Assembly (NCBI GenBank): GCA_964633425.1
Contig: CAZWFX010000004.1
Span: forward strand, 18,517 to 82,516
Source: an uncultured Candidatus Saccharibacteria bacterium
GTDB taxonomy: Bacteria; Patescibacteriota; Minisyncoccia; Phycocordibacterales; UBA2100
DNA length: 64,000 nucleotides
Direction of reading: 5' to 3'
In this document: positions 11,440 through 58,723 of the stretch, piece by piece
Position numbering within the stretch: position 1 is the first letter of the stretch
Layout of the letters: every line of letters begins with the position of its first letter
Program-made: the position numbers and the translations under genes
Notes under the pieces: model-generated
Databases searched by the model: none
Told to the model about the DNA's origin: nothing
The model's input: the letters and a program-made list of their open reading frames with translations, nothing else

Positions 11440-11507
11440 AATTTCGGAATTACATTAATGGTGATCGTAAAAAATCCGATCCTACATCGGACTGTCATGA
11501 AGACGCT

Positions 11508-38953: not shown

Positions 38954-39028
38954 GGCCCTATCGTCTATCGGCTAGGACACGCCCCTCTCACGGGCGAAAG
39001 CGGGGTTCGATTCCCCGTAGGGTCACCA
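38954..39028 (+). tRNA. tRNA-Glu (anticodon CUC), CCA encoded
   Basis: Manual cloverleaf: acceptor GGCCCTA/TAGGGTC, D arm GTCT..GGAC, anticodon arm CGCCC-CTCTCAC-GGGCG, T arm CGGGG-TTCGATT-CCCCG, discriminator A, then CCA. Confidence 0.85.
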
Positions 39029-40706
39029 TCAGGTTTTTATCGGGTACAAATCCCGAAGATAGTTCGAATACTGGGGACAATTTAGGTGTTCCACTAACTA
39101 TTTCTGGATAGGTAGGCATCTTGTCGAATACCAAACCAAATAGATCTCGTAAAGAGCGCGGATCATCAGGGTTTAGCAACAATTCGGCCGGGTGTTCCAT
39201 TACATATCGAGCGTCTTTGATGAATGCTTTTATGTCATGTCTCGAGATCTGTATTTTGAGTCGGATTTTTTGCGCCTCTTTTATCTTTCGGTCGCTCTCC
39301 TCAATTTCTCTTTCAAGTTTCTCTCTAACCACCGCACTTTTTGTGGAGATAAGTAGCCCCAGTTTTGCATCCTGCTCGGCTTCGAGGTCCGCTATATTTT
39401 GGTGAATATCGCCCGACGCTTTCACAATTTCTTTTTCACGTTGTCGGTATTTGTTCATAAAAACCAACTCGAGTGCATTGAGAATATCGGGCTGGAACTT
39501 CAAACTCGAGACATATCTAGTTACTGCTTTTTCAAAGTCTGCTTTTGGTACTCTGAATCCTTTATGATCTCGCGCACAATGATATCCGGGAAACTTCTTC
39601 CCAGACTTGCCTCGTGATGCACTACCCAAAAAGGGTTTTGAGCAATAAGGACAGAGCAGGAACTTGAATGGATACAAAGGGTTGTTCCTTACTCTTACCT
39701 CACCAGTCTTTGAGGAGCGTTTTGCCAACTCAAGACTTCCGTCAGAAGTTTGTTTCAAAATCAATTTCCCGCGATTCGCTCTGTTCCAAAGATCAATACT
39801 AACCAGTCCGTCATACTGCGCTTTTATGGGCTTGAAGTGGGTCCACAATTCACACATAACTCCCGCATAAATTGGATTTTCAATGTATCTCTGGAATTGC
39901 TTTACTGTAAGCGGTTTGCCGCCTCGTTTTGCGATAATCTGCGTGTGTTCTTTGTTCCATCGATTTCGGATTGGTGATCGAAAACCCATAGCATTTACCT
40001 GCGCAACACACTCTTCATCAGTTAGACCACGCGCACGTAGATCAAACATCGCCTGATAAAATAGTGCTCGATCTGGATCTGGAACCTGAATGGTTTTTTT
40101 CTTTCCCTCGACAAATACTTTCTCGTTTTTGTAACCATCCGAAGGAGCGCGTGTACGATAGCCTTGTTGTGCAAGTCGAATCTCTTGTCCTATCATTCGA
40201 TGGAGAATCGTCGTTACTTCTTGCTTTGATGTGGTAGCCAAAACATTTTCAGTGATTTCACTTGGGAAAAACCTGCTCCAGTCATATTCAAAACCTAGAT
40301 CTTCAAGAGTATTTATTGATGGCTGTATAACACCGAGGGTATCAATCATCACTACTCCGTATTTCAGAAGTTCCTTTTTCATCCGATCATACTCACCAGT
40401 ACCAGCACGAGTGAATCTATCTATCGACTTGAATACATAAAAGTTTACGAGCCCAGGATTTTCTTTTATGAACGAAAGTACTTCTTCAAAATCATCACGA
40501 TTAGTTTTTCGTCCAGAAATGGCTCTACCCCATACTTTTCCATGCGGATCATCTTTCGTCTGTGGAACAATAGTCCATCCTCTATCAGATGCGAATCTGC
40601 GTAGACTTTCTTCCTGTCGTTCCAAACTCTCTCCCTCTGATGATTGTTTGAGGGAACTAACTCGACATTGAACTACGCATTTTTTATTTTGTGATGATAG
40701 GTTCAT
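38988..40706 (-). CDS. Large serine recombinase (integrase)
   Basis: 572 aa. Catalytic region CVVQCRVSSLKQSSEGESLERQ, recombinase domain, zinc ribbon CPYCSKPF...YHCARDH, coiled coil. The last ~13 codons are antisense to tRNA-Glu. Confidence 0.85.
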   Translation of the reverse strand: MNLSSQNKKCVVQCRVSSLKQSSEGESLERQEESLRRFASDRGWTIVPQTKDDPHGKVWGRAISGRKTNRDDFEEVLSFIKENPGLVNFYVFKSIDRFTRAGTGEYDRMKKELLKYGVVMIDTLGVIQPSINTLEDLGFEYDWSRFFPSEITENVLATTSKQEVTTILHRMIGQEIRLAQQGYRTRAPSDGYKNEKVFVEGKKKTIQVPDPDRALFYQAMFDLRARGLTDEECVAQVNAMGFRSPIRNRWNKEHTQIIAKRGGKPLTVKQFQRYIENPIYAGVMCELWTHFKPIKAQYDGLVSIDLWNRANRGKLILKQTSDGSLELAKRSSKTGEVRVRNNPLYPFKFLLCPYCSKPFLGSASRGKSGKKFPGYHCARDHKGFRVPKADFEKAVTRYVSSLKFQPDILNALELVFMNKYRQREKEIVKASGDIHQNIADLEAEQDAKLGLLISTKSAVVREKLEREIEESDRKIKEAQKIRLKIQISRHDIKAFIKDARYVMEHPAELLLNPDDPRSLRDLFGLVFDKMPTYPEIVSGTPKLSPVFELSSGFVPDKNLMVTLRGIEPRFRP

Positions 40707-40923
40707 ATGCTTGATCGTCTTTTACAGTATGCGCTTTACGATTTATTTTTTCCAGCCACATATCAAAGTATTTATCTGCAATTCCATCAAGTGCAATAAG
40801 CATCCGGCGTAATTGTTCGTCGGTGTATTTATTTGCTGATGGCCCGAGTGCTTTTTTGAACTCCTCGAACGATGTGGCTGTTTGTTGTATTTCCGGCTCC
40901 ATTGTGGAGCGGATCCAGTACAA
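40684..40923 (-). CDS. Small hypothetical protein upstream of the integrase
   Basis: 79-aa ORF overlapping the integrase start by 23 nt. Could start at the internal MEPEIQQ. Confidence 0.35.
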   Translation of the reverse strand: MYWIRSTMEPEIQQTATSFEEFKKALGPSANKYTDEQLRRMLIALDGIADKYFDMWLEKINRKAHTVKDDQAYEPIITK

Positions 40924-41305
40924 CTAAAAAGGACCCGCAAAGTCCTTCCGAGAAACATATCGGAAGAAATCGCGAGTCCTTTTTCAAGGAGACTCTGGGG
41001 GCGGCGATAACGTTCAAAACCCCATTTATTTAGTTGTGCATAAATTGTATCAAACTTTTTTCTTTTGCAACAATGGCAATTTCCACAATTTTTCGCTATC
41101 ATTGAAGGACAACCGAATATCGGCCCCTTGAGGGCGGGACCTAACCCCGAAAGAGAAATCTATCGGATATGGTCTGAAAGTCGATCAAGCATAGAAAACC
41201 CGTCATGGGGTTGCTTGATCGCCGTATGGGGAAACCTGTACGAGAGGGTTCGCCCTCTACCCGTGGCGGGTTTTCTGTTGCCCGCCATAGGTTTTATTAG
41301 CAAGG

Positions 41306-41755
41306 TTGCTAGCGATCAAGCCAACCATGTTCAAACAAACATACAAACACGATGTTACTTTGCCCGGACGCGGGCTTTACTGGGTATTAGGTGCCATAGT
41401 CGCAGTTCTGGGTTTACTAGCCCTCACAGGCGCGTATTTTGCGAACACGGCCCAAGACTACGATGGGTATACCAAGCCGAAAGCGCAAGAAACGGCAATT
41501 ACCCCAGAAAAGATGCAGAACGGGGTTAGTGCGATGGCAGATTTTATGGTGAAAGATGGGAATGTTGTTGGCCTACGAATGTGGGCGCGATCCCTCGGTG
41601 TTTCTAGTCCGGAGTTCTCAAGTGCCGCAACACTTCGAGAGGAGATCCGTCGTGCCTCAAATGACTTTGCGATCTATCGAGACAAAAACGAGTTATTGAA
41701 ATTGATGCAGTTACTGGGTAATAACGATGCAATTCTCAACGAGGTCGTGAGGTAA
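41306..41755 (+). CDS. Hypothetical membrane-anchored protein
   Basis: 149 aa with one TM helix (GLYWVLGAIVAVLGLLALTGAYF). Confidence 0.45.
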   Translation: MLAIKPTMFKQTYKHDVTLPGRGLYWVLGAIVAVLGLLALTGAYFANTAQDYDGYTKPKAQETAITPEKMQNGVSAMADFMVKDGNVVGLRMWARSLGVSSPEFSSAATLREEIRRASNDFAIYRDKNELLKLMQLLGNNDAILNEVVR

Positions 41756-41756
41756 C

Positions 41757-44033
41757 CTAGAGTTTTTTGAGTTCAGTAAGCACTTCTTCAGAGTTTCCAT
41801 TGTGAACCAAGAAGAAGCGCTGATTTCCTTTACCAAGTTTTTCCCATTCTGTTGCTATCTCAACTTTGTAGGCAGTATCTTCGTTGCTGATGCGATCTTC
41901 GCCTTTCCATTCGAGAGCGACGATTGTTCCTTTTTTAGTTACAGCGACAAAGTCAGGATAAAACTTTCCTTTTTTCCAACCTTGAATGAAGAACGGATCT
42001 ACTTTCTCTCGATTGCGAACCCAGAACTCAATGTTATCTAGCGCACCGAGATCTATGCGTTCAACAAATACTCTTTCCTCTCCGTTGATTCCGTCGATAC
42101 GTTCATAGAGATTTTTATTGAAAACTTTTGGTACCGGAGATTTGAGCGCAATCGTTGAAGGAAACTCCTCAAACAAACCAACAGTAATTTTCTTCTTTGA
42201 AATGAGATCTGCAAATACTTTCTTTGTGTGCTTTTCAAGCACTTCGCTGATAGCAACCGAAAGACGGTCCGCGAGAAGATAGCGATTTACTGATAGTTCA
42301 GGTAGGGATCGTTTATGCTTCTTGATTTGATTGTTTATGGCCTTCTCTATGAAGGCGTTTTTATCCTCCGGAGTAACCATTGGGAAGCGTAGTTTCTTAT
42401 CTAGCCACGTTACCAGTTCATCCTGTGAGTGTTCTCCGTCCAGATATTGATATGGTAGTGAGAGTTGCTTGCCTTGTAGCCACTCATTCTCTTCAGTGAT
42501 ATCGATTGTGGCTTGGCCGTCGAGATCATAGTGTATTTTGAAATCGAAATCAGCATCTTGCTTTGCTAGTTCAAAATCATCAGCCAAAAGGTCCTCAAAT
42601 GATAGTTTGTTTTTACCGATTGCCATCATTGGGACCTGCAACTTCTTCTTGATTGCTTTTTTTGCTTCGAGGGGATCAGAGTACGTTTCTTCTTCAGTTA
42701 CACCGACAAAATCGCTGCGGCTGTATCCGTTATCTTCGAGTCCCTTGATCACCTTTGATGCTGCCTCGTTGAAGTTTGCTGCGGATGCAAACACATAACT
42801 TCGATTGAGTGCCTCGTCTGCTTTTTTCTTTGCGTTAGGCATACGGATCACACGGCCGATGATCTGCTCGACTGCAACTTTTGCGCCGAGATTCGCGACC
42901 GATATGAGGACGTAAGCATAGGAACAGTCCCAACCTTCCGCAAGGGCGTTTACGGTGAGGATGTATCGCACATCGCATTTCTTATCGAACAAATCAATTC
43001 CTTCGAGTTCGTCGACTTCTGATGTTTTGATCTTGATTTGTTCTTCCGGGATCTTCTTGTCGAGCAACATCTGCTTCAACGCTTCGACGGTAACCGTCGC
43101 TTTGGTTTTGCTCTTTGGTTGTGCTTGGAGAAGTGCAATAGGGCGGATCTTTTCTCCTTTGAGTTTTTCTGCACGCTTCTCCAATTCGTTGCGCTTCATG
43201 ATTCCGTCGGAAACAACTTGCTCCCATTGTGTGCGACTCTCAAGAACAATCGGGATTTTTACCATCTCCTCGATCTTTAGTTCTGATGCACTTGTGTGGA
43301 CGAGCACGTTGCTGCCATCTCGGGGAGTAGCGGTAAACTCGATGATAAATGACGGCTTGAGATCAGACAGGAACGAAATAGAAAGATCTGTCTGTGTGTG
43401 GTGGCCCTCGTCGATTACGATGAGAGGATTGTTTTTTCTAATCACGTTTGCGAGTGAGTTGATTACTTCACCCGCAGAGTCTTTTTCCAAAGCAGATACA
43501 TCTTTCAAGTTCTGGAAGTGGTCCATCAAGGCACCGTTTTCCTTGTAGACTTTGTACTTGTTTTGGATCTTGGCTTCCTTTCGGAAAGCATCGAGGCTCG
43601 CAACGATAATGCAGAGATTGTTTCGAACGTCCTCCGGCGTGATAGCCAGTGCCTCCTCGTTTGAAAATACTTTGAACTTCGTATCGAATGAGTCATTCAA
43701 GACTTCAAAATGTAAATCCTTTGGATCACGAAGTTTCTTGAGAGTTTGTGTTTTTATTGAGTCCGAAGGAACGAACCACATGACAATTCCTGTATCCATC
43801 TTGTTCTGAAGGATAGTCGACATGATTCTCTCAACAGATTTACATGCGACCAGGGTTTTACCTGCACCTGTAGGCATACGAAGGCACACAAAAGGCACGT
43901 CGTTGAACCACTGGTGATTGTAGTTTTTCTCGGTGATCTCGTTGAAAGCATGTCGTGCTTTCATTTTCTTGAGTAGTCCCAAGAACTGGTCGAGAGTATC
44001 TATCGCATTTTGTTGGTAGGTTTTGAACTTCAT
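41757..44033 (-). CDS. res: Type III restriction enzyme Res subunit (SF2 helicase + PD-ExK nuclease)
   Basis: 758 aa. Motif I MPTGAGKT, motif II VIDEGHH, motif III FTATP, motif VI QIIGRVIRM. C-terminal YPDF...ALEWKGE fits PD-(D/E)xK. Confidence 0.85.
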   Translation of the reverse strand: MKFKTYQQNAIDTLDQFLGLLKKMKARHAFNEITEKNYNHQWFNDVPFVCLRMPTGAGKTLVACKSVERIMSTILQNKMDTGIVMWFVPSDSIKTQTLKKLRDPKDLHFEVLNDSFDTKFKVFSNEEALAITPEDVRNNLCIIVASLDAFRKEAKIQNKYKVYKENGALMDHFQNLKDVSALEKDSAGEVINSLANVIRKNNPLIVIDEGHHTQTDLSISFLSDLKPSFIIEFTATPRDGSNVLVHTSASELKIEEMVKIPIVLESRTQWEQVVSDGIMKRNELEKRAEKLKGEKIRPIALLQAQPKSKTKATVTVEALKQMLLDKKIPEEQIKIKTSEVDELEGIDLFDKKCDVRYILTVNALAEGWDCSYAYVLISVANLGAKVAVEQIIGRVIRMPNAKKKADEALNRSYVFASAANFNEAASKVIKGLEDNGYSRSDFVGVTEEETYSDPLEAKKAIKKKLQVPMMAIGKNKLSFEDLLADDFELAKQDADFDFKIHYDLDGQATIDITEENEWLQGKQLSLPYQYLDGEHSQDELVTWLDKKLRFPMVTPEDKNAFIEKAINNQIKKHKRSLPELSVNRYLLADRLSVAISEVLEKHTKKVFADLISKKKITVGLFEEFPSTIALKSPVPKVFNKNLYERIDGINGEERVFVERIDLGALDNIEFWVRNREKVDPFFIQGWKKGKFYPDFVAVTKKGTIVALEWKGEDRISNEDTAYKVEIATEWEKLGKGNQRFFLVHNGNSEEVLTELKKL

Positions 44034-44034
44034 G

Positions 44035-45552
44035 TTAGTAGACTTTTATTTCGTATGGAATTTGCTTGAAGGTAATACCTTTCGACGCTAACTCATCCTC
44101 ATCAACAAGGCAGCGGTCCGCATAGATCACAGCCTGTCCGGTTATTTTGAGTTTTGCGAGCGCTTCTCGAGTGAGATCGTTCTTGTTCTTTCCAGTGTAT
44201 AGGAGATAGTAGGAAGTGCCATTGTTATCTCCAATGACTGGTGCCTTTATGTTTTTCTTCACCACATTTGTGTGTGTTTCGGTAAAGTAAATGTACGTAG
44301 CAAGTTCTTCGTAAGTACACTGATCGTTGATCTGTCCTTTCTCATTGAATAGGGGTTGCCCAAGACGGATATACTCAAAACCATCCGAATATGAGTATTT
44401 CTTCGACACTCTCTTTAGTCGTTCCGCTGTAATGTTTTTTGCTACATCGTCCTCAAGTTCAACAAGGATAAATTGTCGATTTGATCCATTTTTGTTTAGT
44501 TCCATCACTGCATGTCCTGTGGTACCAGATCCCGCAAATGAATCGAGAACAATCGAGTCATCATACGAAGATATCTTGATCAGGTGTTGGATGAGTTCAA
44601 TCGGTTTGGGGTTATTGAAAACTTCCTGCTTACCAAAAATGTCGGCAAGCATTTTGGCTGCGGAATCTGTTGAGCCATAGTTATCCAAGATGTTCGGTTG
44701 CGCTGAATATGTATCCTTGTCCTCAAAGTCATAGATTTTGAGTTTGATTACTCCCTTATCGTTGATGAAGCGACCTCGCTTTTCCAACTCCTGTGCTTTT
44801 TCTTGCCCAATTTGCCACCGCTTACCATTTCGCGGCTTTATTCCTAGAATTGGAAATTGCATTGATGCTCTTTCGTAGTCCCCAGCGTTCTTTTTTTCAA
44901 TGATAGTGAGTCTGTAAGAACCCTCTTTATCTTTATGAGGATAGTCTCGAGACTCTTTTGAAGTTACTCGAGGAAACAACCTACCACTAGAAGTTTTTGA
45001 GTAACAAATCTGATAATCAAAAAGTGAACTGACCTGTACTCCAGCAACATTTGTCGATGTTCCTTTCTTCTTCCAAATAAAACTTGTGATGAAGTTTTTG
45101 GCACCGAATATCTCATCCATCAAAAGTCGGAAATGGTGATTTTCATTGTCATCAAGACTAACAAAAATAACACCGTCGTCTGACATAAGATCCCTGATAA
45201 GTTTCAGTCGAGGGTACATCATGCATAGCCATTTATCATGACGGGTAAGATCTTCGCCCTCACGACCAACAACTTTTTTTATCCAGTCAGCAATTTTTGG
45301 TGAGTTCACTCTATCGTTGTAAACCCAATTTTCGCTACCTGTGTTATATGGAGGATCAATGTAGACGCATTTTACTTTACCCTTGTAGAAAGGCACTAGA
45401 GCCTTGAGTGCCTCGAGATTATCACCATTTATGAGGAGGTTCTTTGATTCGTTCTTCGCAGAGACAGATGCCACTTTTTCAAGCAATTTGAAAGGAACCT
45501 CCTTATCGTGGTTCACTACCGCATCTTTTCCAATCCAATTTAGTGTTGCCAT
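44035..45552 (-). CDS. mod: Type III R-M Mod subunit (beta-class N6-A/N4-C DNA methyltransferase)
   Basis: 505 aa. Motif IV VYIDPPYN precedes motif I DSFAGSGTTGHA. Stop lies 1 nt before the res start. Confidence 0.85.
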   Translation of the reverse strand: MATLNWIGKDAVVNHDKEVPFKLLEKVASVSAKNESKNLLINGDNLEALKALVPFYKGKVKCVYIDPPYNTGSENWVYNDRVNSPKIADWIKKVVGREGEDLTRHDKWLCMMYPRLKLIRDLMSDDGVIFVSLDDNENHHFRLLMDEIFGAKNFITSFIWKKKGTSTNVAGVQVSSLFDYQICYSKTSSGRLFPRVTSKESRDYPHKDKEGSYRLTIIEKKNAGDYERASMQFPILGIKPRNGKRWQIGQEKAQELEKRGRFINDKGVIKLKIYDFEDKDTYSAQPNILDNYGSTDSAAKMLADIFGKQEVFNNPKPIELIQHLIKISSYDDSIVLDSFAGSGTTGHAVMELNKNGSNRQFILVELEDDVAKNITAERLKRVSKKYSYSDGFEYIRLGQPLFNEKGQINDQCTYEELATYIYFTETHTNVVKKNIKAPVIGDNNGTSYYLLYTGKNKNDLTREALAKLKITGQAVIYADRCLVDEDELASKGITFKQIPYEIKVY

Positions 45553-45554
45553 AG

Positions 45555-45731
45555 TTATTTTGTGCTGGTTCCTTTCATAAAGCGCTCAAACTCTTCTCGC
45601 TCAATCCGGAACTCTTTGCCGATCTTATAGGCTTTGAGTCGCTTGGCTTTGATGTATCGGTAGATCGTCATCACGTTCACCGATAGCAATTCAGCCAACT
45701 CTTTTGCGGTGTAATACGCCTTTTCTGCCAT
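45555..45731 (-). CDS. Excisionase-family helix-turn-helix DNA-binding protein
   Basis: ORF 45555..46178 trimmed to MAEKAYYTAKELAELLSVNVMTIYRYIKAKRLKAYKIGKEFRI (58 aa), a typical excisionase/MerR-like HTH. Ends 2 nt before the mod start. Confidence 0.7.
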   Translation of the reverse strand: MAEKAYYTAKELAELLSVNVMTIYRYIKAKRLKAYKIGKEFRIEREEFERFMKGTSTK

Positions 45732-45791
45732 ACAGAAATGATACTTTACTTTTGTTGACATTACAATCACCACAGGAGTAACATTTCCACT

Positions 45792-47267
45792 ATGTTCCAA
45801 CCTAAAGCAGGAAGAAATGATCCTTGTCCTTGTGGAAAAAAGAAGCCCCACGGTGATTCCATCAAGTACAAAAAATGCTGCTTGTCGAAAGATGAGCAAA
45901 GAGCAAAACTTCAAGAGCGAGTAAAAAATGTTACTCGTGCTGACTTTGTAGGTGGTCCATATAAGAAATGCCCAAAATGCGGCAAAAAGACCTTTGGTGT
46001 TTGGATTGGCACAGGTGGTAATGGTTACTCTCGAGAGTGTACGACCTGTTGGCACAAACAGGGTTTCAAATTGCCAAAGATAAAAAAGAAAATCGTCTAT
46101 CTCGATCAGTTTTTGATAAGCAACATGACAAAAGCCCTCGACAAAAACGCGAGGAGCCATGCGGCAGTAATGACTCAACCTTTTTGGCTAGAAGCATATA
46201 AGAAACTGGATCGTCTTTACATGATGAATCTGATTATCTGTCCGGACTCATCCTTTCATACGAATGAGTCACTTTTATCAGGCGATCCACCTTACAAATC
46301 ACTGAAAAAAGTTTACGAGAGGCTTTCAGATGGATGTACCTTCTATGACCACCACACGATTGAGCGATTCCAAGTTCAGCAACATTTCAAGAACTATTTG
46401 GATGGAGACCCTGCAAAAACACTTGAACTCATTGTTGAGAACGTGGTTCATGGCCGACTTCACGAATGGCTTGGCAGAATGGGTGTACGTGTAAACATGC
46501 GCCCATATGACGGGCAACTCGAAGCGGTGCATAAAGAAAGAAACTCACTGTACGAATCAATGAAAAGTATCTTTGCTCGTTGGCAAAGTGAAAAAGATAA
46601 GAAGTTTGATGATTGGTTCAAGGAAGAGGGCTATGCTTTTGGAAAAGGTACGATTCAAGCGCACTTGAAGTTCTTACAGAAACAGGACGATTTTATGAAA
46701 AAGTATGCCACTGAATACGTAGACGGAAAGGAGCCCGAAGTAGACCTTGATAGCGTGTTACCTCCGGCATCGAGTGAACTTATACAGGCTTTATTGCGCG
46801 AACTACGTGGTCGAGGAATCGATGGATCCGATGCAATAAAGAAAATCATTGAATACCTTTCTTCTCAATACGTTCTCGATATTCCGTCTATTCGGATTTC
46901 TTCATTGCTGTACGCAAGTATCGCTCGTAAAGCAGCAAACGGACAAAAAGAACCGCCAAACAAAGGTACTTTTACAGACATAAATGCCATCTCAAGCCTG
47001 TTGCCTTATTGTGATGCGATGTTTGTCGATAATGGAATGGCGGCGCTACTAAAAGAAAGTCCACTAAACAAAGAACTTGCGGTTTATGCTGCTAAAGTTT
47101 TTAGTCCAAATACGAAGGAGGAGTTTCTTCAGTATCTTGACTCGTTAGAACAGGAGGCCGATCCTTCGCACCTAGAACTAATCCAAGATGCTTACGGCGA
47201 GACTTGGCTTGAGCCACACTTGAGTCTTTTGGAAAAGAACCCACTCGATGATGAGGAAGACGAGTAG
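45792..47267 (+). CDS. SEC-C motif + zinc-ribbon protein of unknown function
   Basis: 491 aa. N-terminal RNDPCPCGKKKPHGDSIKYKKCC (SEC-C-like), then CPKCGKK...CTTCWH. The large remainder is unrecognised. Acidic C-terminal tail DDEEDE. Confidence 0.65.
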   Translation: MFQPKAGRNDPCPCGKKKPHGDSIKYKKCCLSKDEQRAKLQERVKNVTRADFVGGPYKKCPKCGKKTFGVWIGTGGNGYSRECTTCWHKQGFKLPKIKKKIVYLDQFLISNMTKALDKNARSHAAVMTQPFWLEAYKKLDRLYMMNLIICPDSSFHTNESLLSGDPPYKSLKKVYERLSDGCTFYDHHTIERFQVQQHFKNYLDGDPAKTLELIVENVVHGRLHEWLGRMGVRVNMRPYDGQLEAVHKERNSLYESMKSIFARWQSEKDKKFDDWFKEEGYAFGKGTIQAHLKFLQKQDDFMKKYATEYVDGKEPEVDLDSVLPPASSELIQALLRELRGRGIDGSDAIKKIIEYLSSQYVLDIPSIRISSLLYASIARKAANGQKEPPNKGTFTDINAISSLLPYCDAMFVDNGMAALLKESPLNKELAVYAAKVFSPNTKEEFLQYLDSLEQEADPSHLELIQDAYGETWLEPHLSLLEKNPLDDEEDE

Positions 47268-47694
47268 AAGTCGATCGTTGATAAAGCAATAAAGTTTCAT
47301 TTTGTTCGACCTCTAACCTTGGGGTCAACTCCTCTGCAAAAAACATTGCCATGTCCCACTTGAGAATTGAGTTTGCCGCGGCAAGTCGTTCCATTGTTGA
47401 AGAGTCTTTTTCTTCTAGGATTAGGGCTATTTTCTTTGTAATGACTCGGTGTCTTTCCTTCAGATTTATCAATCTCTCTGTGCGGCTTTGACATGACAGT
47501 TCCGCAAGGTTTTCTATTCGAACCTTTTTCATTAGTCTCGCTACGTAATGCCAGTCGAGTTCTCCGCGCAGAGATTGGTAACCTTTCAGGTAAAGCGCAT
47601 TACGAACTTGTGCCACGGACTTGAGGGGAAAGAGTGCGATCTCATCGCGAATCGCTCGCTTGATCAGTTCTTCAATTTCTTTTGGCTTTCTCAT
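47101..47694 (-). CDS. Hypothetical protein (3' portion overlaps convergent gene; extent uncertain)
   Basis: 197-aa ORF. The first ~135 aa have plausible helical composition. The last 167 nt overlap 45792..47267. Confidence 0.4.
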   Translation of the reverse strand: MRKPKEIEELIKRAIRDEIALFPLKSVAQVRNALYLKGYQSLRGELDWHYVARLMKKVRIENLAELSCQSRTERLINLKERHRVITKKIALILEEKDSSTMERLAAANSILKWDMAMFFAEELTPRLEVEQNETLLLYQRSTSTRLPHHRVGSFPKDSSVAQAKSRRKHLGLVLGAKDRPPVLTSQDTEETPPSYLD

Positions 47695-47883
47695 GTTCGT
47701 GTTTATTCGTGGTTTTGCTCGCTCGCTACACTACGTTCCATACCCTGATAGGTAATGTCTTTTGTCTCGATTGATTCTGAAAAATGGCTAAACCACATGC
47801 GTTTGTGATAGCATTAGATAACTCGGATTGAGGGTTTGGAACACCGTTTTCCATTTCAAAACTAGGTTTTCTATGGTGTTCCA

Positions 47884-47906
47884 TTCAAATCCCTCCGGGC
47901 TCACAA
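47884..47906 (+). other. tRNA 3'-end-like fragment (T loop + 3' acceptor strand, no 5' half)
   Basis: TTCAAATCCCTCCGGGCTCACAA, followed by the same hairpin/trailer repeat found after intact tRNA genes. No complementary 5' acceptor strand lies upstream. Confidence 0.4.
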
Positions 47907-48060
47907 AAACACCAAGAAACCTGCACTGCTGCAGGTTTCTGCGGTTTTTGGGAAGACGGAGGCATGTTTTGCCAGCAGGCAAAACGGCCGAGTCCGGGGC
48001 TGGAAAATTTTCGAGCGGCGGCGAGAAAATTATTGTGGCTCACAAGACACTTCACGCCGA
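47907..48060 (+). repeat. tRNA-trailer repeat, diverged copy
   Basis: Terminator hairpin AAACCTGCA/TGCAGGTTT, then H1 GTTTTGCC-AGCA-GGCAAAAC and H2 AATTTTC-GAGCGGCGGCGA-GAAAATT. Homologous to the reverse complement of 60749..60894. Confidence 0.7.
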
Positions 48061-48140
48061 TTCCCCTTTTTAAGAATCCGCTATCAGCACAAAAGAAAAC
48101 ACGGCCCAGTAAGGCCGCGCATTGTTCTCTGGAGTCCAAA

Positions 48141-48644
48141 TCAGGACGGCAAAAGGACGCCACTCGTTTTCGCGGACTCGACGGATGCAATTGAGGGGAT
48201 CCAGAGCTCCCTCGCCGGAACTTCCTCGAACTGGATGTCTCCGCATACGTCTGCAAGGGCCTGACGCATTTTTGGGATAATGTGCGGCGCCTCGGCCGCC
48301 ATGTGCGCTTCGCCTTTCGCGACGAAACCCGTAGGCAAAATGTAGAGCCAATAGAGCCCCCTGGTATGTTGCAGGGCGTGCGCCAGACGATACACATCAT
48401 CTCCCTCAGATCTGGCCCTACGTTCCCAGTCGCCGCTCAATTCATACCCATCAGTGCCATACCTGAAAACCAGGTATGCACTGCTTTTCATGCGCACCAA
48501 TTCTCCCGGCACGATGCAATTGAAAACGATAAAGTGACGCGTCGCGTCATGATCCACCGGAGAGGGCTTGAGTCCGTAGACGACCAAGGGACGGTCGCTT
48601 AGAATGTCACGCATTGCTAGTCCTCCAAGTTCACCCGACGCCAC
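48141..48644 (-). CDS. Hypothetical protein
   Basis: 167-aa ORF. The start may be the internal MRDILSDRPL. Confidence 0.45.
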   Translation of the reverse strand: MASGELGGLAMRDILSDRPLVVYGLKPSPVDHDATRHFIVFNCIVPGELVRMKSSAYLVFRYGTDGYELSGDWERRARSEGDDVYRLAHALQHTRGLYWLYILPTGFVAKGEAHMAAEAPHIIPKMRQALADVCGDIQFEEVPARELWIPSIASVESAKTSGVLLPS

Positions 48645-48746
48645 TATGCCGCATATACATTGTTTTGAACAGAATTCGCGGATGTGTGTCGCTGAAATCG
48701 TTCGCCTATCAGTTGTTTCCGGTTCGCTCCCTAAAGAGTCAGCGGT

Positions 48747-49115
48747 ATGAAAATAACGTCCGATTGGCGTTCAAAGCAAATGGCACGCGTGCGCACTCTC
48801 ATAAAACAGGCCGCACCGAAAGTGACCGAGGAAATAAAGTACCGCACAAAAACCAATCCCGGCGGCGTTCCCTGCTGGTACCTCGACGGCATGATCTGCA
48901 CCGGCGAAACCTACAAAGAGCACCTGCGCTTTACGTTCTCGAAAGGCCGTGCACTTAAGAAAGACCACGATCCTAAAAACGTGTTGAATCGATTTACGGC
49001 GATCACACTGACCGAGACGGACAAACTGAACGAGACAGCTTTCAAACAGTTGATAAAAGCAGCGGTCGCACTCAACCGTGTACCGAAGGCAGCAAAGCCC
49101 ACAAAGCGTTCATAA
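48747..49115 (+). CDS. DUF1801 (YdhG-like) domain protein
   Basis: 122 aa. MARVRTLIKQAAPKVTEEIKY...EHLRFTFSKG resembles the YdhG-like family layout. Confidence 0.55.
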   Translation: MKITSDWRSKQMARVRTLIKQAAPKVTEEIKYRTKTNPGGVPCWYLDGMICTGETYKEHLRFTFSKGRALKKDHDPKNVLNRFTAITLTETDKLNETAFKQLIKAAVALNRVPKAAKPTKRS

Positions 49116-49151
49116 AAAAATCGCTCCGGAATTGCTTCCGGAGCGAGCGGG

Positions 49152-49382
49152 CTAACCCGCGTTAAAGGAACCGATGATGCGTCCCTCGACGACCGACGAG
49201 CGAGCCCGTCCAATCATCTCGCACGACACCATGTTCGCATCCGCCCAAATCTTACCCTCGTCTCCCGTTTCCTCGTTGGCGAGTTGTCTCGCTCGTTTTG
49301 CCGAGGACGCGGCGATGACCATGGCATCGTAGGTATCGTAACCTTGATACCCAGCGAAATTTACAAGTTTGTAGATTTTCAT
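49152..49382 (-). CDS. Small hypothetical protein
   Basis: Trimmed to MKIYKLVNFAGYQGYDTYDAMV (76 aa). Confidence 0.4.
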   Translation of the reverse strand: MKIYKLVNFAGYQGYDTYDAMVIAASSAKRARQLANEETGDEGKIWADANMVSCEMIGRARSSVVEGRIIGSFNAG

Positions 49383-49547
49383 TGATCTCTCCGTGACTTG
49401 AGTGTGGACTCCCGGTCCTTCAAGCGCGGATGCAAACAACGAAATCTGCGGCGGATACGTACCGGCGTATTATTCATTGAATAACGTATTTGTCAATATG
49501 AAAACGCGGCAGAGCAATTGCCCTACCGCGTGTCAGCTATTGAAGGA

Positions 49548-50054
49548 TCATGAGCTCCCTACGAACGGTAGCTTGCTGCGAATCGCTTTGAGGCCTTCGA
49601 CCGAGTCGAAGAACACGTCGACGACCGTGTCGGCCGAGACCTTGAGGAACGATGTGCTCGTGACCACGATCACGCACTCCTCAGCGGCCACTTCGATGTA
49701 CCAGGCGTCTTCCTTGTACGTGGCACGAGCCATACGGCGCACTTCGGACTGTAGCTCGTTGACGAGATCCTCGACCTCGTTCGGCACGAACCACCGCGCG
49801 ATGCGATGCAAGAGCCCCCGTTTCACTTCATCGGTCAGTTCGCCGTGAGACGTTATGCGCAGCCGGCCACCGACCTCCTGCGTGGCAGCGAGCGCTCGCA
49901 GCGACATCGGTATCACGACAGCGAGCGCCTTCGACATCAACGACTCCTTGAACGGCACCAACTTGAAAGCGGTGCCGACCAAAAACGGAAGCGGGGCCGC
50001 AATCGCGGCGAGAACCGCCTTGGTCAGATTTTCACTCGGTTCATAGACTTCCAC
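49548..50054 (-). CDS. Hypothetical protein
   Basis: 168-aa ORF in the ArsR-headed gene string. Confidence 0.5.
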   Translation of the reverse strand: MEVYEPSENLTKAVLAAIAAPLPFLVGTAFKLVPFKESLMSKALAVVIPMSLRALAATQEVGGRLRITSHGELTDEVKRGLLHRIARWFVPNEVEDLVNELQSEVRRMARATYKEDAWYIEVAAEECVIVVTSTSFLKVSADTVVDVFFDSVEGLKAIRSKLPFVGSS

Positions 50055-50087
50055 GGTGATTCTCCCTGCGGTGAGCTGTATTCGGCC

Positions 50088-50393
50088 TCAGTACGTTTTG
50101 TATTCAGGATCGCGGTTCCAGTGGCAGGACTGCGCGGCATATTCGATGACGCCCGCCTGCGAATAGAACGTCTCTTCCCCGAAATCATGCTCAAAATGCG
50201 TGATGATGCTGCGTGCAGCATCAACCACCACTTCGGGTGAAAAGTCCGCAGTCATTTTTCCGACCATCAGCCTACCCTTCGGCAGCGAGAGCACCGATGC
50301 CGCCATGGACTTCTCGGTGAGCTTTATGGCAATCGTTGGGTTCAGTTTTGCCTCGGCTTTCACGGTCGCCTCCCTCTTGTGAGCCGGGCGCAT
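50088..50393 (-). CDS. Hypothetical protein
   Basis: 101-aa ORF in the ArsR-headed gene string. Confidence 0.45.
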   Translation of the reverse strand: MRPAHKREATVKAEAKLNPTIAIKLTEKSMAASVLSLPKGRLMVGKMTADFSPEVVVDAARSIITHFEHDFGEETFYSQAGVIEYAAQSCHWNRDPEYKTY

Positions 50394-50467
50394 AGTGCGA
50401 TATCAACCTAAAAGTGTCAAACAACAGAGCTCCGCGACGCGGAGCTCTTTGATGCACATAAGCAGGA

Positions 50468-51259
50468 TCAGTACTGCTTCAAAAGATCGATCAGGATGGC
50501 AGCTTTGCGCAATTCCACGCCGATCAGTTCGTCCTCTGCAGCGCCGGCATTCGGCCTATAGATTTCTTCGCCGAAATTCGGCACGAACTTCTCGTGGTGC
50601 GCATACTCGGCCTCTCGGAGCGCCGTAACAAAGTTTCCGAGACCGAACTCGACGTGCGCGATCATTGCCCGGATCACGTGCTGCGGCGAATTCCTGTTCA
50701 CACGATCGCTGAAACGCTCTGTAGCCCGAGCGCGCACCTGCTGTTCATCGTTCGTCCCAAAGAATCCGCGCGGATCGTTCAGGACGCTCGCGGTCTCGCC
50801 GACATACGGAAGCGCCTCCTCCAGAATCGGTCGTATCTCCATCACGTACGCTTCAACCAGTTTCCTGAAGATGCCGTCGTAGCCCATGATCTCGAGGTAT
50901 CGCGCGAGCACCTCGACGCCGGTCGCGCCATAGACCGCCTCGGTGCTAAAGACCGTTTCGCGAACGACATCCTCGGGGGAACAATCAGGTTTCGACGGCA
51001 AATCGACCCAGCGCGTACGCTCGACCCCCTCGGCCCATTCGATATACATGCCGTCGAGTCGCATCTTGAGCGCGGTCGCGTGCTTGATCTGAAACTCGTA
51101 CACGCCTCCCTGCTCCTCGAAGTTCCGTTCGAGCAGTGTGTTCCACTGCTCGATGCGCTCCTTGTGCTCGCGGAGTTTGAGCGGCGGCGTGAGCGTCTTG
51201 TCACGGCTCATTTCGATCAAACGCAGTGTCGTTTCCCGGCTTGCGAATTTTACCGACAT
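50468..51259 (-). CDS. Hypothetical protein
   Basis: 263-aa ORF with balanced composition. The antisense ORF 50594..51397 is Arg/Leu-rich. Confidence 0.55.
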   Translation of the reverse strand: MSVKFASRETTLRLIEMSRDKTLTPPLKLREHKERIEQWNTLLERNFEEQGGVYEFQIKHATALKMRLDGMYIEWAEGVERTRWVDLPSKPDCSPEDVVRETVFSTEAVYGATGVEVLARYLEIMGYDGIFRKLVEAYVMEIRPILEEALPYVGETASVLNDPRGFFGTNDEQQVRARATERFSDRVNRNSPQHVIRAMIAHVEFGLGNFVTALREAEYAHHEKFVPNFGEEIYRPNAGAAEDELIGVELRKAAILIDLLKQY

Positions 51260-51330
51260 GTGAACCCTCCCGTTTGCTATGGATCCGCTGACACTTTTTC
51301 ACAGATCACGCGTTCGCGAAAGGGCCGCGT

Positions 51331-51636
51331 CTATTCATCCTTGGCCGGCTTCAGAGCCGAGAATTCGTCGATAAACTTCATAAAAATCTTTCCGTAGCGA
51401 GACAGTTTGTGGCGCACATCCCTCCCCTCATGAACCTTTTCTATGAGTCCGGCGAGCGCGAGACGGCGCGTGTGCTCGGAGATGGTTTTGAGATTGGCGT
51501 TGAGGCCGTCTGCAATCGCAAGCAGTGAGTCGTTGGGATGCGCGCGAAGGTGGAACAAAATTCTGATACGCGTGTGGTTGGCCACACCCTTGAAGTGGCG
51601 TTCGAGTTTCTTGGGACCTTTTGTTGACAGAGCCAT
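51331..51636 (-). CDS. ArsR/SmtB-family transcriptional regulator
   Basis: 101 aa. FKGVANHTRIRILFHL...IADGLNANLKTISEHTRRLALAGLIEK is a typical ArsR winged HTH. Confidence 0.8.
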   Translation of the reverse strand: MALSTKGPKKLERHFKGVANHTRIRILFHLRAHPNDSLLAIADGLNANLKTISEHTRRLALAGLIEKVHEGRDVRHKLSRYGKIFMKFIDEFSALKPAKDE

Positions 51637-51644
51637 CCGTACAT

Positions 51645-51672
51645 ATTCTCACATTCTTGAGAATATGAGAAT
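51645..51672 (-). promoter_or_regulatory. 28-bp palindrome copy 3, 8 nt upstream of the ArsR-family start codon
   Basis: ATTCTCACATTCT-TG-AGAATATGAGAAT. On the coding strand it reads ...TGTGAGAAT-ATGTACGG-ATG, so an extended -10-like element sits 8 nt before the ATG. Confidence 0.65.
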
Positions 51673-51695
51673 GTAACGAAACGAAAACGGCCGCA

Positions 51696-52241
51696 TCACG
51701 AGGATGCGACCGGTACTTCCCTTGCGAAGAGCGCGTTGCACACATCACGAGCGATCGTCTCCGGCAACACCCGGTTCGTCGCGATATCCCTCCAGTGATC
51801 TGCGTCGAGCACGAGATGCTTGGCTGCCGCCGGATGGCGAGTGCCCCAGAGGACGACGCGATCGCGAGCGCTTTGAAACGTCACGATCGGGGCCGGTAGA
51901 TCTCCGCGCGCACCGAGTACGCAGGTGTACCCCACATAGTTGTGCGGCGAATTAATAGTCACAATACCGACGACCGGAGTTTTCTGCAGCCGCTGAGCGA
52001 CCGCACACGCGATCACACCGCCCAAGCTGTGTCCCACAATGAGCGATTCTATTCCGTCGTCGTAGCGCTGCACCAGCGCGTCGCGGTAGCGGATCATGCG
52101 GGGTATATCGATGGGCAACATTCCCCGCTCTTCGGTATTTTGAATGTCTGCTATCGGTGCCTTGCTCGCAATCGCGCGCGCTACAGCGGGCACAACCGGA
52201 TTATCAAAGCACCAAATGCCGTTCACTCCCAGTAACCTCAT
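51696..52241 (-). CDS. Alpha/beta hydrolase (lipase-like)
   Basis: Trimmed to MRLLGVNGIW. Nucleophile elbow VGHSLGG. The stop codon lies inside the terminator hairpin. Confidence 0.6.
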   Translation of the reverse strand: MRLLGVNGIWCFDNPVVPAVARAIASKAPIADIQNTEERGMLPIDIPRMIRYRDALVQRYDDGIESLIVGHSLGGVIACAVAQRLQKTPVVGIVTINSPHNYVGYTCVLGARGDLPAPIVTFQSARDRVVLWGTRHPAAAKHLVLDADHWRDIATNRVLPETIARDVCNALFAREVPVASS

Positions 52242-52284
52242 CCTCGCCTCCCTGATAACTCGCGCTGTTATCCCACGGCACGAG

Positions 52285-53184
52285 ATGAACGTCAAAGCAT
52301 CGATGCCGTATCATATGGATATGCGTGACACGCTCCGCGATATCGCCCTTCCGTTTGTAATGGGCGCAATGGTCGCAGGAGGCGTCTTTGCCTACGATCG
52401 GGTGGCCACACCGATCGCACTGTACGAACGACGCGTACCCTCGTTCGATGAAATGGTTGCCACCGAGGTCTCAATGAGCGACCCCGATCACCTCTTGCCG
52501 GACCTCGTCCCCTTGCCTGCCCGCGACCTCACACTCAGTGTCGGTGCAAACGGCCACCTGCAGCTGCTCTTCAGCACCACGTATTACAACCAGGGAACCG
52601 GTCCGCTCGAATTGCGAGCCGATCCTTCAACAACAGGTATTTTTGACGACATCGACCGCGTGGTATCACAGCGCGTCTATGCAAAGGATGGCACCTTCAC
52701 CGACAGAAAAGTCGGCGTGTTCCGGTGGCATCAAACACATCTTCACTATCACTTTTCCGATTTTGTTTCGTACATCCTCACATCCGAATCAGCACAGAGC
52801 GATCCGATCAGACTCGAAAAGGCGACGTTCTGCATCCGCGACGTGAGCAGACTAAAACAAGACATGCCCGACAAAAAATCGCCTGCCACCTATACGATCT
52901 GCGGCAAGGAGCGCCAGGGAGTATCTGTCGGTTGGGCCGACACCTACTACTACAACTACCCGGATCAATCGATCGATCTCAATGACATTCCGACCGGCAC
53001 GTATCGGCTGTCGTTTGTCGTAAACCCGGCAGGAGCACTCCGAGAGCAGGCGTATCTGAATAACCGCAGCTATGTCGTGTTTGCGTTCAATAAAGAAGAT
53101 CACACCGTCACGATCCAAAAAGAGTTCCCCGAGCACCCACCCGAGGTCGAACATGTTCATTTGGACGACCCGTTCGGCATGTAG
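52285..53184 (+). CDS. Membrane-anchored lysyl-oxidase-like protein
   Basis: Start uncertain (52285, 52303 or 52315). FRWHQTHLHYHFSDFVSY and GWADTYYYNYPDQSIDLNDIP parallel the WHSCHQHYHS and G.D.Y....DCQWIDITD blocks of LOX domains. Confidence 0.6.
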   Translation: MNVKASMPYHMDMRDTLRDIALPFVMGAMVAGGVFAYDRVATPIALYERRVPSFDEMVATEVSMSDPDHLLPDLVPLPARDLTLSVGANGHLQLLFSTTYYNQGTGPLELRADPSTTGIFDDIDRVVSQRVYAKDGTFTDRKVGVFRWHQTHLHYHFSDFVSYILTSESAQSDPIRLEKATFCIRDVSRLKQDMPDKKSPATYTICGKERQGVSVGWADTYYYNYPDQSIDLNDIPTGTYRLSFVVNPAGALREQAYLNNRSYVVFAFNKEDHTVTIQKEFPEHPPEVEHVHLDDPFGM

Positions 53185-53196
53185 CATACTCATGCC

Positions 53197-54315
53197 ATGA
53201 CCCGTTTGCTGATCGGCTTACTCGCGATTCCCGTCATTCTCTATGTGGCACTCGTCGCCATTTCGCCCCGCGAGGTGCCTCCGGTCACTCCGGTAGAAAC
53301 CGCATCTTCGACACACACTGTTCAGGTCGAACAGGACCGCGTGATCGCAGATGCGCTCAGTATCCCGTGGGACATCGCATTTCTACCCGACAACTCCATG
53401 CTCGTAACGGAGCGTACGGGCGATGTACTTCATATGGCAAACAGCGGAAGCTCAACGCGACTCACCGTGTCGCGTTCTGTGAGCGGCGAAGCCGGTCTTT
53501 TGGGCATTGTGCTGCACCCGGACTTTGCGAACAACGGCTACGTGTACCTGTATGTATCGACCGCAAACGGCGACGGTACGAGTAATGCCGTCGTACGGTA
53601 TGTGTTTGCAAACGACACGCTCACCAAAGACAAAGATATTATTACAAATATCCCGGGAGCCCTGTATCACGATGGCGGTCGGCTGGAATTCGGACCTGAC
53701 GGTAAGCTGTACATAACGACGGGCGACGCAACCCGTGGCACGCTCGCGCAAAACAAAAATTCCCTTGCCGGAAAGATCCTTCGGCTAAACGATGACGGCA
53801 CCATCCCGTCCGACAACCCGTTCGGGAACGCTGTGTGGTCGTACGGACATCGCAATCCGCAGGGACTCGCATGGGATTCCAGCGGCAACCTGTGGGAATC
53901 GGAACACGGACCGACCGGCGAAGACGGTCGATGTTGCCATGACGAGATCAATAAAATCGAAGCAGGCGGCAACTACGGCTGGCCCGATGTGATCGGAGAT
54001 GAAACAAAGGCGGGAACGATCGCTCCTGTTCTACAATCCGGAGAAGACACCTGGGCGCCGGCAAGCCTCATCTATTGGAACGGATCGTTGTATTTCGGCG
54101 CATTGAAAGGTACGGCACTGATGCGCGCCACATTCTCCGGCGGCACGGTCCTAAACGCCGAGCGCACACTCCGCGACACGTACGGTCGAATTCGAACCGT
54201 CCGTATGGGGCCGGACCACATGTTGTATATAACGACGAGCAATACAGACGGCCGCGGGCGGCCGCTGCCGATCGACGATCGCATTGTGCGGGTCGATCCC
54301 GCATCTCTCAGGTAA
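53197..54315 (+). CDS. PQQ-dependent sugar dehydrogenase (soluble glucose/sorbosone dehydrogenase family)
   Basis: 372 aa. N-terminal TM helix; LLGIVLHPDFANNGYVYLY, GGRLEFGPDGKLYITTGD, GHRNPQGLAWD. Confidence 0.8.
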   Translation: MTRLLIGLLAIPVILYVALVAISPREVPPVTPVETASSTHTVQVEQDRVIADALSIPWDIAFLPDNSMLVTERTGDVLHMANSGSSTRLTVSRSVSGEAGLLGIVLHPDFANNGYVYLYVSTANGDGTSNAVVRYVFANDTLTKDKDIITNIPGALYHDGGRLEFGPDGKLYITTGDATRGTLAQNKNSLAGKILRLNDDGTIPSDNPFGNAVWSYGHRNPQGLAWDSSGNLWESEHGPTGEDGRCCHDEINKIEAGGNYGWPDVIGDETKAGTIAPVLQSGEDTWAPASLIYWNGSLYFGALKGTALMRATFSGGTVLNAERTLRDTYGRIRTVRMGPDHMLYITTSNTDGRGRPLPIDDRIVRVDPASLR

Positions 54316-57347: not shown

Positions 57348-57349
57348 TG

Positions 57350-58683: not shown

Positions 58684-58723
58684 GACTATCAAAATTCCTC
58701 CAGCAGCCCGAAGCCACCGTTGT

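Follow-up and report, generated by a model that had tools for sequence, protein, structure and literature searches.

Insertion at the 3′ end of a tRNA gene is a habit of tyrosine integrases, and serine integrases usually insert in protein-coding genes. In the SSV1-type (fusellovirus) integrases of archaea, the integrase gene itself contains the attachment site of the element (attP), and integration into the target, a tRNA gene, divides the integrase gene. Here we analyze a 64,000-nucleotide stretch of DNA from an uncultured Candidatus Saccharibacteria bacterium (assembly GCA_964633425.1, contig CAZWFX010000004.1, positions 18,517 to 82,516), referred to throughout as the window. Its positions 39027–47904 (8,878 bp) very probably form an integrative genomic island of a family widespread in Patescibacteria (the Candidate Phyla Radiation, CPR). 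As read from sequence comparison, the island was inserted by a serine recombinase, has its attP inside the gene of that recombinase, and carries a LOOT RNA.

LOOT is classed in Rfam as a metagenomic small RNA (sRNA) (PMC7779021), and its family, RF03000, comes from the Weinberg 2017 collection. No functional study of LOOT was found in the literature, and the Weinberg 2017 main text does not discuss it. An island with an integrase and a restriction–modification (R-M) system is in itself ordinary. Four features appear to go beyond this: a clade of serine integrases that targets tRNA genes, an attP within the integrase gene with state-dependent C-termini, the placement and extension of LOOT, and a 491-aa protein family associated with R-M.

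An island at the 3′ end of tRNA-Glu

The guanine-plus-cytosine (GC) content is 42.9% inside the island and 54.9% in the remainder of the window. The profile runs at 0.53–0.60 until about 38.9 kb, at 0.39–0.49 over 39.0–47.9 kb and at 0.51–0.60 beyond, and the lowest of 150 other 8.9-kb segments has at least 51.7% GC (none lies below). This abrupt drop and recovery bears out the AT-rich island at tRNA-Glu described in the original prediction, which had been made from the sequence alone. Its right edge, put at 47.75–47.9 kb, was correct within a few bases (47904/47905). At the left edge the composition does switch at the end of the tRNA gene, as it had said, but the island proper begins at 39027 and the tRNA body is host DNA. 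The ends are marked by the following features.

38954 to 39028, plus strand: tRNA-Glu(CUC), called by ARAGORN, Rfam tRNA 51.8 bits; the integration target, whose T-arm and acceptor 3′ strand are the left arm of the host attachment site (attB)
39023 to 39026, plus strand: core TCAC of the left junction (attL), tRNA positions 71–74 (discriminator), placed by alignment of copies
47901 to 47904, plus strand: core TCAC of the right junction (attR), the right boundary of the island, placed by alignments of four elements
47915 to 47940, plus strand: hairpin and U run in the host flank, probably the original terminator of the tRNA gene

A genome scan with an alignment of the recombinase yielded 66 loci of the family. 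Two full copies of the same element, L307 and L308, were obtained through exact look-ups of the two closest recombinase homologues, and each is ~82% identical to the window in nucleotides. L307, from Parcubacteria Gr01-1014_46, is inserted in tRNA-Glu(UUC), and L308 in tRNA-Glu(CUC). Exact look-ups of the window recombinase and of both flanking proteins found no record. The three flanks are unrelated, while the ends are common to all three. Host flanks have 37.4% GC in L307 and 55% in L308 and the window; the element keeps 43–48% throughout. Shared ends, unrelated flanks and an element GC content independent of that of the host together indicate horizontal transfer. Cargo is exchanged between the copies: L307 has a 933-aa DUF4365 protein in place of the R-M genes, and L308, which keeps the helix-turn-helix (HTH)–mod–res string, carries a 285-aa gene where the window has the 491-aa gene. 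In a further locus, L061, a different element of the same family stands in front of the right flank of the window.

Alignment of the copies places both ends closely. On the left, the sequence tracks the host tRNA up to GGTCAC and is element-specific beyond it, all copies continuing with CA(T/A)(C/T)AGGTTTTTATCGGG. The acceptor 3′ strand pairs with the 5′ strand of its own host in all three copies (TAGGGTC/GGCCCTA, TGAGGTC/GGCCTCA and TAAGGTC/GGCCTTA). Because it covaries in this way, the tRNA body must be host DNA and the crossover must lie 3′ of position 72. On the right, all copies end in ...CCGGGCTCACA and unrelated flanks follow. Four elements all finish in GCTCACA, after which their flanks diverge, and similarity to the same element in other hosts ends at 47904/47905. 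We infer from these alignments a crossover in or next to TCAC at the discriminator. No long direct repeats flanking the island were found, TCAC being the sole sequence shared by the two ends. In two other members, L007 and L032, the tRNA 3′ end recurs as a perfect direct repeat of 16–17 nt on the far side of the element, so the family is not uniform in the length of tRNA end that is duplicated.

These boundaries define the predicted junctions. Joining 47904 to 39027 gives an attP that reads ...CCGGGCTCAC followed directly by CATCAGGTTT..., and joining 39026 to 47905 gives an attB that reads ...GTAGGGTCAC followed directly by AAAAACACC.... At an empty site, the host sequence expected directly 3′ of tRNA-Glu(CUC) is AAAAACACCAAGAAACCTGCA.

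The hairpin at 47915–47940 has an equivalent at the matching place in L308 and L061. It belongs to a 140-nt right flank (47906–48045) that is 75% identical to the flank of the different element in L061. This flank holds the probable tRNA terminator hairpin, a second hairpin, and then a terminal GGCTCACAA similar to the end of the element itself. Either a conserved tRNA trailer or the remains of an earlier insertion could account for this flank.

A predicted attP within the recombinase gene

The recombinase gene meets the tRNA gene at the left end of the island, and its 3′ end appears to be displaced to the right end.

38988 to 40706, minus strand: large serine recombinase in its integrated form, 572 aa, the last 13 codons antisense to the tRNA T-arm and acceptor
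47788 to 47904, minus strand: 38 codons (VSPEGFEWNTIENLVLKWKTVFQTLNPSYLM...) that make up the displaced recombinase 3′ end and also the P arm of attP, resembling a tRNA T-arm

When the island ends were joined in silico, the recombinase open reading frame (ORF) grew from 572 to 598 aa and acquired a new tail, VSPEGFEWNTIENLVLKWKTVFQTLNPSYLMLSQTHVV (EWNTIEN..KW). Codons 1–31 of this tail are identical in protein among the window, L307 and L308 despite differences in DNA. Pairwise comparison of the tails gives 5–6 synonymous codon differences and 2–5 non-synonymous ones, all of the latter within the last seven codons. The same differences read in the other two frames would give 0–1 synonymous against 7–9 non-synonymous changes. 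A motif of the form [ED]WNT[ILMV]E...W is found at the far end, on the recombinase strand, of nine further elements, whose sizes measured from this motif are 4.8–10.7 kb. A WN[TSH]-type tail directly continues the gene in ten relatives that lack an adjacent tRNA and come from Alphaproteobacteria, Verrucomicrobia, Saprospiraceae and Gemmatimonadaceae. Synonymous-only change, the far-end motif and the contiguous tail in relatives together mark the tail as a genuine, conserved part of the protein. The joined ORF of L007 is without the WNTIE motif. On this comparative evidence, attP is placed within the recombinase gene, about 38 codons ahead of the stop.

The P arm resembles a tRNA T-arm and acceptor in its DNA (TTCAAATCCCTCCGGGCTCAC versus TTCGATTCCCCGTAGGGTCAC). 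We considered whether this tRNA-like right end is the displaced original 3′ end of the tRNA and rejected the idea, since the sequence is conserved with the element rather than the host and shows no pairing to the acceptor 5′ strand of the host tRNA. The right end is therefore read as the P arm together with the coding sequence of the recombinase tail. Integration substitutes 12 residues read from the tRNA for the displaced tail (47904 to 47788, minus strand). The state-dependent C-terminus may contribute to the control of direction, and perhaps so may a conserved 72-aa ORF that overlaps the start of the recombinase.

In the integrated state, the displaced tail lies within a 64-aa ORF (47788–47982, minus strand) whose TTG start codon is in host DNA and which reads through attR. 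Its junction codon across attR is GTG.

A divergent family of serine recombinases

The catalytic domain of the recombinase matches Pfam Resolvase (PF00239, 6.9e-11, 42.9 bits against a cut-off of 23.3). It carries the motif RVSSLKQ, of which R15 and S17 are nearly invariant among 37 homologues. The Pfam Recombinase domain (PF07508) scores 20.6 bits, slightly under its cut-off of 21.1, and many homologues have a precomputed match to it. C352, C355, C377 and H376/H381 are invariant in the homologues, and the PF13408 zinc ribbon was undetected in this recombinase. The protein also matches the PHROG integrase family phrog_95 (3e-39). Its homologues number 707 at E ≤ 1e-5, the best 91% identical, and are mostly from Patescibacteria. 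By profile, the nearest solved structure is the catalytic domain of the TP901-1 integrase (3bvp, 1.2e-8), the match being confined to that domain. By these comparisons the enzyme belongs to a divergent clade of large serine recombinases, distant from those that have been characterised.

Association with tRNA genes is a property of the family. Of 60 related loci scanned for tRNAs, 32 have an antisense tRNA gene that overlaps the last 25–45 nt of the recombinase ORF. The tRNA is mostly Glu, with some Lys, Trp, Arg and Gly. Read antisense, the T-loop yields the C-terminal consensus ...LVTLxGxEP. A second subfamily of serine recombinases, found beside LOOT, overlaps Asn, Ala and Ser tRNAs in the same way. 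At least 10 contigs terminate within a few bases of the recombinase 3′ end, as would be expected of assemblies if integrated and excised forms coexist.

Several family members from outside the CPR (L017, L020, L028, L029, L031, L034, L056 and L060) share further gene families around the recombinase. Most of these loci have a full-length recombinase and no adjacent tRNA, with T-loop-like DNA still in the tail.

LOOT RNA on the island

The original prediction had noted a 380-bp structured spacer. This stretch (40924–41305) contains a known RNA family.

41136 to 41280, plus strand: LOOT RNA, ~145 nt, consisting of the Rfam RF03000 match (41138–41258) and a conserved 3′ tail that pairs with the apical loop of P2
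41263 to 41298, plus strand: terminator-like hairpin (GTGGCGGG...CCCGCCAT and a U run) that competes with the long-range helix of LOOT for the tail

The RF03000 match scores 71.6 bits against a gathering score of 46.4 and covers all 121 model positions; our own covariance model gives the window copy 129 bits. Conservation in the aligned copies reaches 24 nt past the Rfam 3′ end. In the RNAalifold prediction, this tail (GUGGCGGGUUUUCUGU) and the apical loop of P2 (AUAGAAAACCCGUCAU) form a helix, with 16 of 16 pairs present in the window, several of them G–U. On 15 copies the long-range helix is 96% paired, with compensatory changes at 12 of its 16 pairs. On 83 copies, in which some columns are fixed by the search pattern, it is 98% paired and the free columns covary (for example, AU in 53 and GC in 27). 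This 16-bp helix is not in the Rfam model and competes with the upper P2 stem of that model.

The covariance model found LOOT in 14 of the 66 recombinase loci, and also in L307, L308 and L309 (at 1817–1964 in the last). An independent set was built from a LOOT DNA pattern alone and comprised 80 metagenome loci, all true hits. A first DNA pattern used on viral contigs was too loose (3 true hits among 80 loci), and tighter patterns gave one viral locus. The hidden Markov model of the recombinase family missed the other recombinase subfamily on the LOOT loci, and neighbours were clustered instead. The commonest neighbour in the pattern-found set is a serine recombinase of that other subfamily (26 loci). 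Among loci of at least 6 kb, 18 of 32 have a serine recombinase near LOOT, often divergent from it with a gap of 90–460 nt.

The tail has an alternative partner. In the window it can pair downstream, forming a 9-bp hairpin (41263–41288) followed by the U run. A helix of at least 8 bp between tail and downstream sequence is present in 44% of LOOT loci, compared with 17.5% of control windows. In about one-sixth of the loci, the 5′ strand of P2 is repeated within 80 nt downstream of LOOT, in a sequence specific to each locus. In the window the repeated sequence is CGATCAAGC, found again shortly before the ATG of the next gene. Repeats of at least 9 nt occur in 17% of cognate pairs and 0.8% of non-cognate pairs. 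The downstream pairing and the P2-strand repeat suggest a switching leader or a regulatory sRNA. LOOT is most likely a regulatory RNA of the element, predicted to be a structured leader or sRNA heading the operon that diverges from the recombinase.

A role as a guide or bridge RNA was rejected. Across 10 loci with Glu, Lys and Gly targets, the longest identical or complementary matches between LOOT and the att sites are 5–8 nt, against a mean of about 7 nt for shuffled sequences.

Some loci show further features around LOOT. One metagenome contig (L243) carries two copies on the same strand, 1.35 kb apart (11386–11529 and 12737–12880). In L200, L227 and others, nearby genes include a bAvd-like protein and a reverse transcriptase (parts of diversity-generating retroelements), ParB–methylase fusions and SNase-domain genes.

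Core genes and defence cargo

Three ORFs recur with the recombinase and LOOT.

40684 to 40902, minus strand: conserved 72-aa ORF that runs 23 nt into the start of the recombinase gene; a candidate for a regulator or directionality factor
41306 to 41755, plus strand: 149-aa ORF with an N-terminal hydrophobic helix, directly 3′ of LOOT, with an ATG at 41327
47101 to 47694, minus strand: 197-aa ORF of unknown function at the right end of the island

Homologues of the 72-aa ORF lie directly upstream of the recombinase in about 30 loci (blastp), and the gene is also called in L307 and L308. It has no match in Pfam, NCBIfam, PADLOC or PHROGs, and a homologue search found only 7 close relatives. The 149-aa ORF, for which no family match was found, has homologues directly after LOOT in L001/L307, L308 and L241. 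The 197-aa ORF is kept in L001/L307, L308 and L032; in the predicted circle it would follow the extended recombinase ORF after 93 nt, in the same orientation. The core of the element is thus the 72-aa ORF, the recombinase, LOOT with its following gene, and the 197-aa ORF, and variable slots hold the defence cargo. In the window this cargo comprises four genes.

41757 to 44033, minus strand: type III restriction subunit, res (Pfam ResIII, 1.8e-15; PADLOC REase_III, 3e-91)
44035 to 45552, minus strand: type III methyltransferase, mod (Pfam N6_N4_Mtase, 2.8e-39; PADLOC MTase_III, 4.9e-157)
45555 to 45731, minus strand: 58-aa excisionase-family HTH gene before mod (Pfam HTH_17, 2.4e-14; TIGR01764, 3e-15; mad1-like)
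45792 to 47267, plus strand: 491-aa SEC-C/zinc-ribbon protein, family uncharacterised, oriented divergently to the R-M operon

The spacers are 2 nt between the HTH gene and mod and 1 nt between mod and res. The MTase_III profile spans Mod residues 1–504, and IDPPYNTG (DPPY at about residue 66) precedes FAGSGTTG (FAGSG at about 340). Res has the helicase motifs GAGKT and DEGHH, and a C-terminal PD...EWK was read from the sequence. At 758 aa Res is short, matching about the first half of the 898-aa REase_III profile; that profile covers residues 2–434, and the nuclease domain is without a profile match. By profiles and motif order, mod–res is a type III R-M operon. Mod is 60% identical overall between the window and L308, with well-conserved ends and poor conservation at residues ~165–300. 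Nucleotide similarity to L308 is lost over 44550–45064 in mod. Residues ~165–300 are likely the target-recognition region, swapped relative to L308. The 58-aa HTH gene precedes mod in L308 and L309 too.

The 491-aa family has 206 homologues at E ≤ 0.001. An AlphaFold2 model of the protein has a predicted local distance difference test score of 92.6, and no fold match to it was found in PDB or BFVD. The family recurs beside R-M operons. In three of five neighbourhoods inspected the homologue adjoins one, and in a fourth it lies among other defence-like genes. It is divergent from a type III operon with the same HTH in L309 (7001–8446) and from a type II DpnII system with two methylases in L311 (7001–8464), and in L315 (6001–7467) it stands beside a serine recombinase and a type III-like operon.

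Much of this inventory had been anticipated. The 572-aa serine recombinase, the closely spaced HTH–mod–res string of a type III system, the 491-aa SEC-C/zinc-ribbon protein and the small unknown ORFs are all present as the original prediction described them. It had missed LOOT, the conserved small ORF before the recombinase, and the attP within the recombinase gene.

Outside the island, dcw genes (mraZ, rsmH, an ftsI-type transpeptidase and a Mur ligase, probably murE) occupy 54316–59158 on the minus strand. In five related hosts (L006, L012, L021, L057 and L308) these genes directly adjoin tRNA-Glu. Window positions 38954–54315, comprising the tRNA, the island and 6.4 kb of host genes, are inverted relative to the dcw arrangement of those hosts. 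A weak match to the Rfam cow-rumen-3 RNA at 51623–51748 on the minus strand (27.9 bits against a gathering score of 86.7) is probably due to chance.

Discussion

We propose that a large serine recombinase of the divergent clade inserted a circular form of the element at the very 3′ end of tRNA-Glu(CUC). The tRNA body would be left intact and its trailer replaced by element DNA, which would supply the last two bases (CA) of the encoded CCA. The excised circle would encode a 598-aa enzyme with the conserved WNTIE..W tail, and the integrated copy one of 572 aa, the final 12 of them encoded antisense within the tRNA gene. A built-in state switch is possible, and we put it forward tentatively. The circle enzyme, with its tail, would be competent for integration; the tail-swapped enzyme would tend to stay put or to excise only with the 72-aa partner; and LOOT would be the RNA component of the same control region. 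A LOOT leader that toggles between the long-range helix and a terminator or sequestering helix would then set expression of the operon diverging from the recombinase.

Several points weigh against this interpretation as a whole. Neither an empty attB from a close relative nor a circular junction is in evidence, and the island has no replication or transfer genes. Matches of the 572-aa protein to the Pfam recombinase domain and zinc ribbon are weak. Dyad symmetry in the reconstructed attP and attB is unconvincing, reaching at best 13 of 30 positions with the junctions set one base off. LOOT is absent from 52 of the 66 family loci, so recombination does not depend on it. Nor is the gene that follows LOOT conserved, and this speaks against a classical metabolite riboswitch. 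What the C-terminal swap means for function is itself only inferred.

Some of these points would suit an immobilised remnant, integrated once by a recombinase that, without its conserved C-terminal tail, can no longer excise the island. The integrated ORF does lack the WNTIE tail, and neither junction or empty-site evidence nor transfer or replication genes were found. However, every core ORF is intact, and in three diverged copies the first 31 codons of the displaced tail show no non-synonymous change, which would not be so had the tail never rejoined the gene and been translated. The same element has also reached hosts of 37% and 55% GC, and many assemblies break exactly at attL. We consider a remnant possible but unlikely.

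A degenerate prophage or phage satellite, with LOOT as a phage regulatory RNA, seems more doubtful still. Three LOOT copies do lie on IMG/VR contigs beside serine recombinases, and the retroelement parts and ParB–methylase genes near other copies are typical of phages. Yet the island has no PHROG match to a structural, packaging or replication protein, complete family members measure only 4.8–10.7 kb, and tblastn with the recombinase found no match in 50,697 phage records or 72,556 plasmids. Inoviruses, whose hallmark is a pI/Zot-type ATPase, were rejected as candidates, as no family search of the island proteins matched such an ATPase and the literature text found was not relevant to the island.

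That the island is native low-GC DNA and its recombinase a resolvase or invertase unrelated to insertion, for instance the enzyme behind the local inversion relative to the dcw cluster, is very improbable, given identical element ends in unrelated flanks, a GC content independent of that of the host, the family-wide association with tRNA 3′ ends, and an inversion end (38954) that lies upstream of the tRNA and not at the att core.

The integrative element delivering defence cargo that the original prediction had proposed is thus the reading that we retain, given the same element in other hosts, the flank shared with L061, the cargo swaps and the tRNA overlap in more than half of the loci scanned. 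Of the two findings that it had named as fatal, neither was made: related genomes do not carry the island as syntenic backbone, and the behaviour of the recombinase family is that of integrases.

What sets the direction in which serine integrases act is a central issue, both in the field and in genome engineering, and a natural family whose C-terminus is rewritten by integration would be a testable case. To our knowledge, a C-terminal state switch has not been described as a directionality mechanism for serine integrases. If the switch suggested here is real, these enzymes would gain such a mechanism and an orphan RNA would gain a biological role. LOOT, formerly a metagenomic RNA without host or context, is now placed on recombinase islands of Patescibacteria with its structure extended. 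Short conserved tRNA 3′ ends, the targets of this family, are an unusual choice for serine integrases. The islands of the family show that CPR bacteria exchange R-M modules, and a widespread 491-aa partner yet to be characterised, as cassettes.

Several parts of the island can be set against a described system. Its R-M operon resembles the EcoP15I type III system in having mod before res, the motif order of a beta-class methyltransferase, a helicase core and a C-terminal PD-(D/E)xK-like motif. It differs in its short Res, the excisionase-type HTH before mod and the divergent 491-aa neighbour. LOOT matches Rfam RF03000 over its full length, but the window copy lies on a serine-recombinase island, is 24 nt longer at the 3′ end and has an extra 16-bp helix.

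As a whole, the island is like tRNA-linked islands with tyrosine (P4-like) integrases, with insertion at a tRNA 3′ end, an adjacent integrase, variable defence cargo and atypical GC. Unlike these, it uses a different enzyme class, and its crossover is at the discriminator, so that only TCAC and not the tRNA body is duplicated. The enzyme itself shares an N-terminal resolvase catalytic domain and the RVSS serine motif with the phiC31, Bxb1, TP901-1 and A118-type integrases. Like these integrases, it probably has a recombinase domain, a Cys-rich region that may be a zinc ribbon and a long helical segment, and the window copy is inserted without long direct repeats (TCAC only). Unlike them, it is so divergent that solved structures match only the catalytic domain, and it targets tRNA 3′ ends with a predicted attP in its own coding sequence.

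The closest parallel to this arrangement of attP is the SSV1 type. There, a tyrosine integrase of archaeal viruses is split into two large gene parts. Here, a bacterial serine recombinase is predicted to lose only its last 38 codons, which are replaced by 12 codons antisense to the tRNA.

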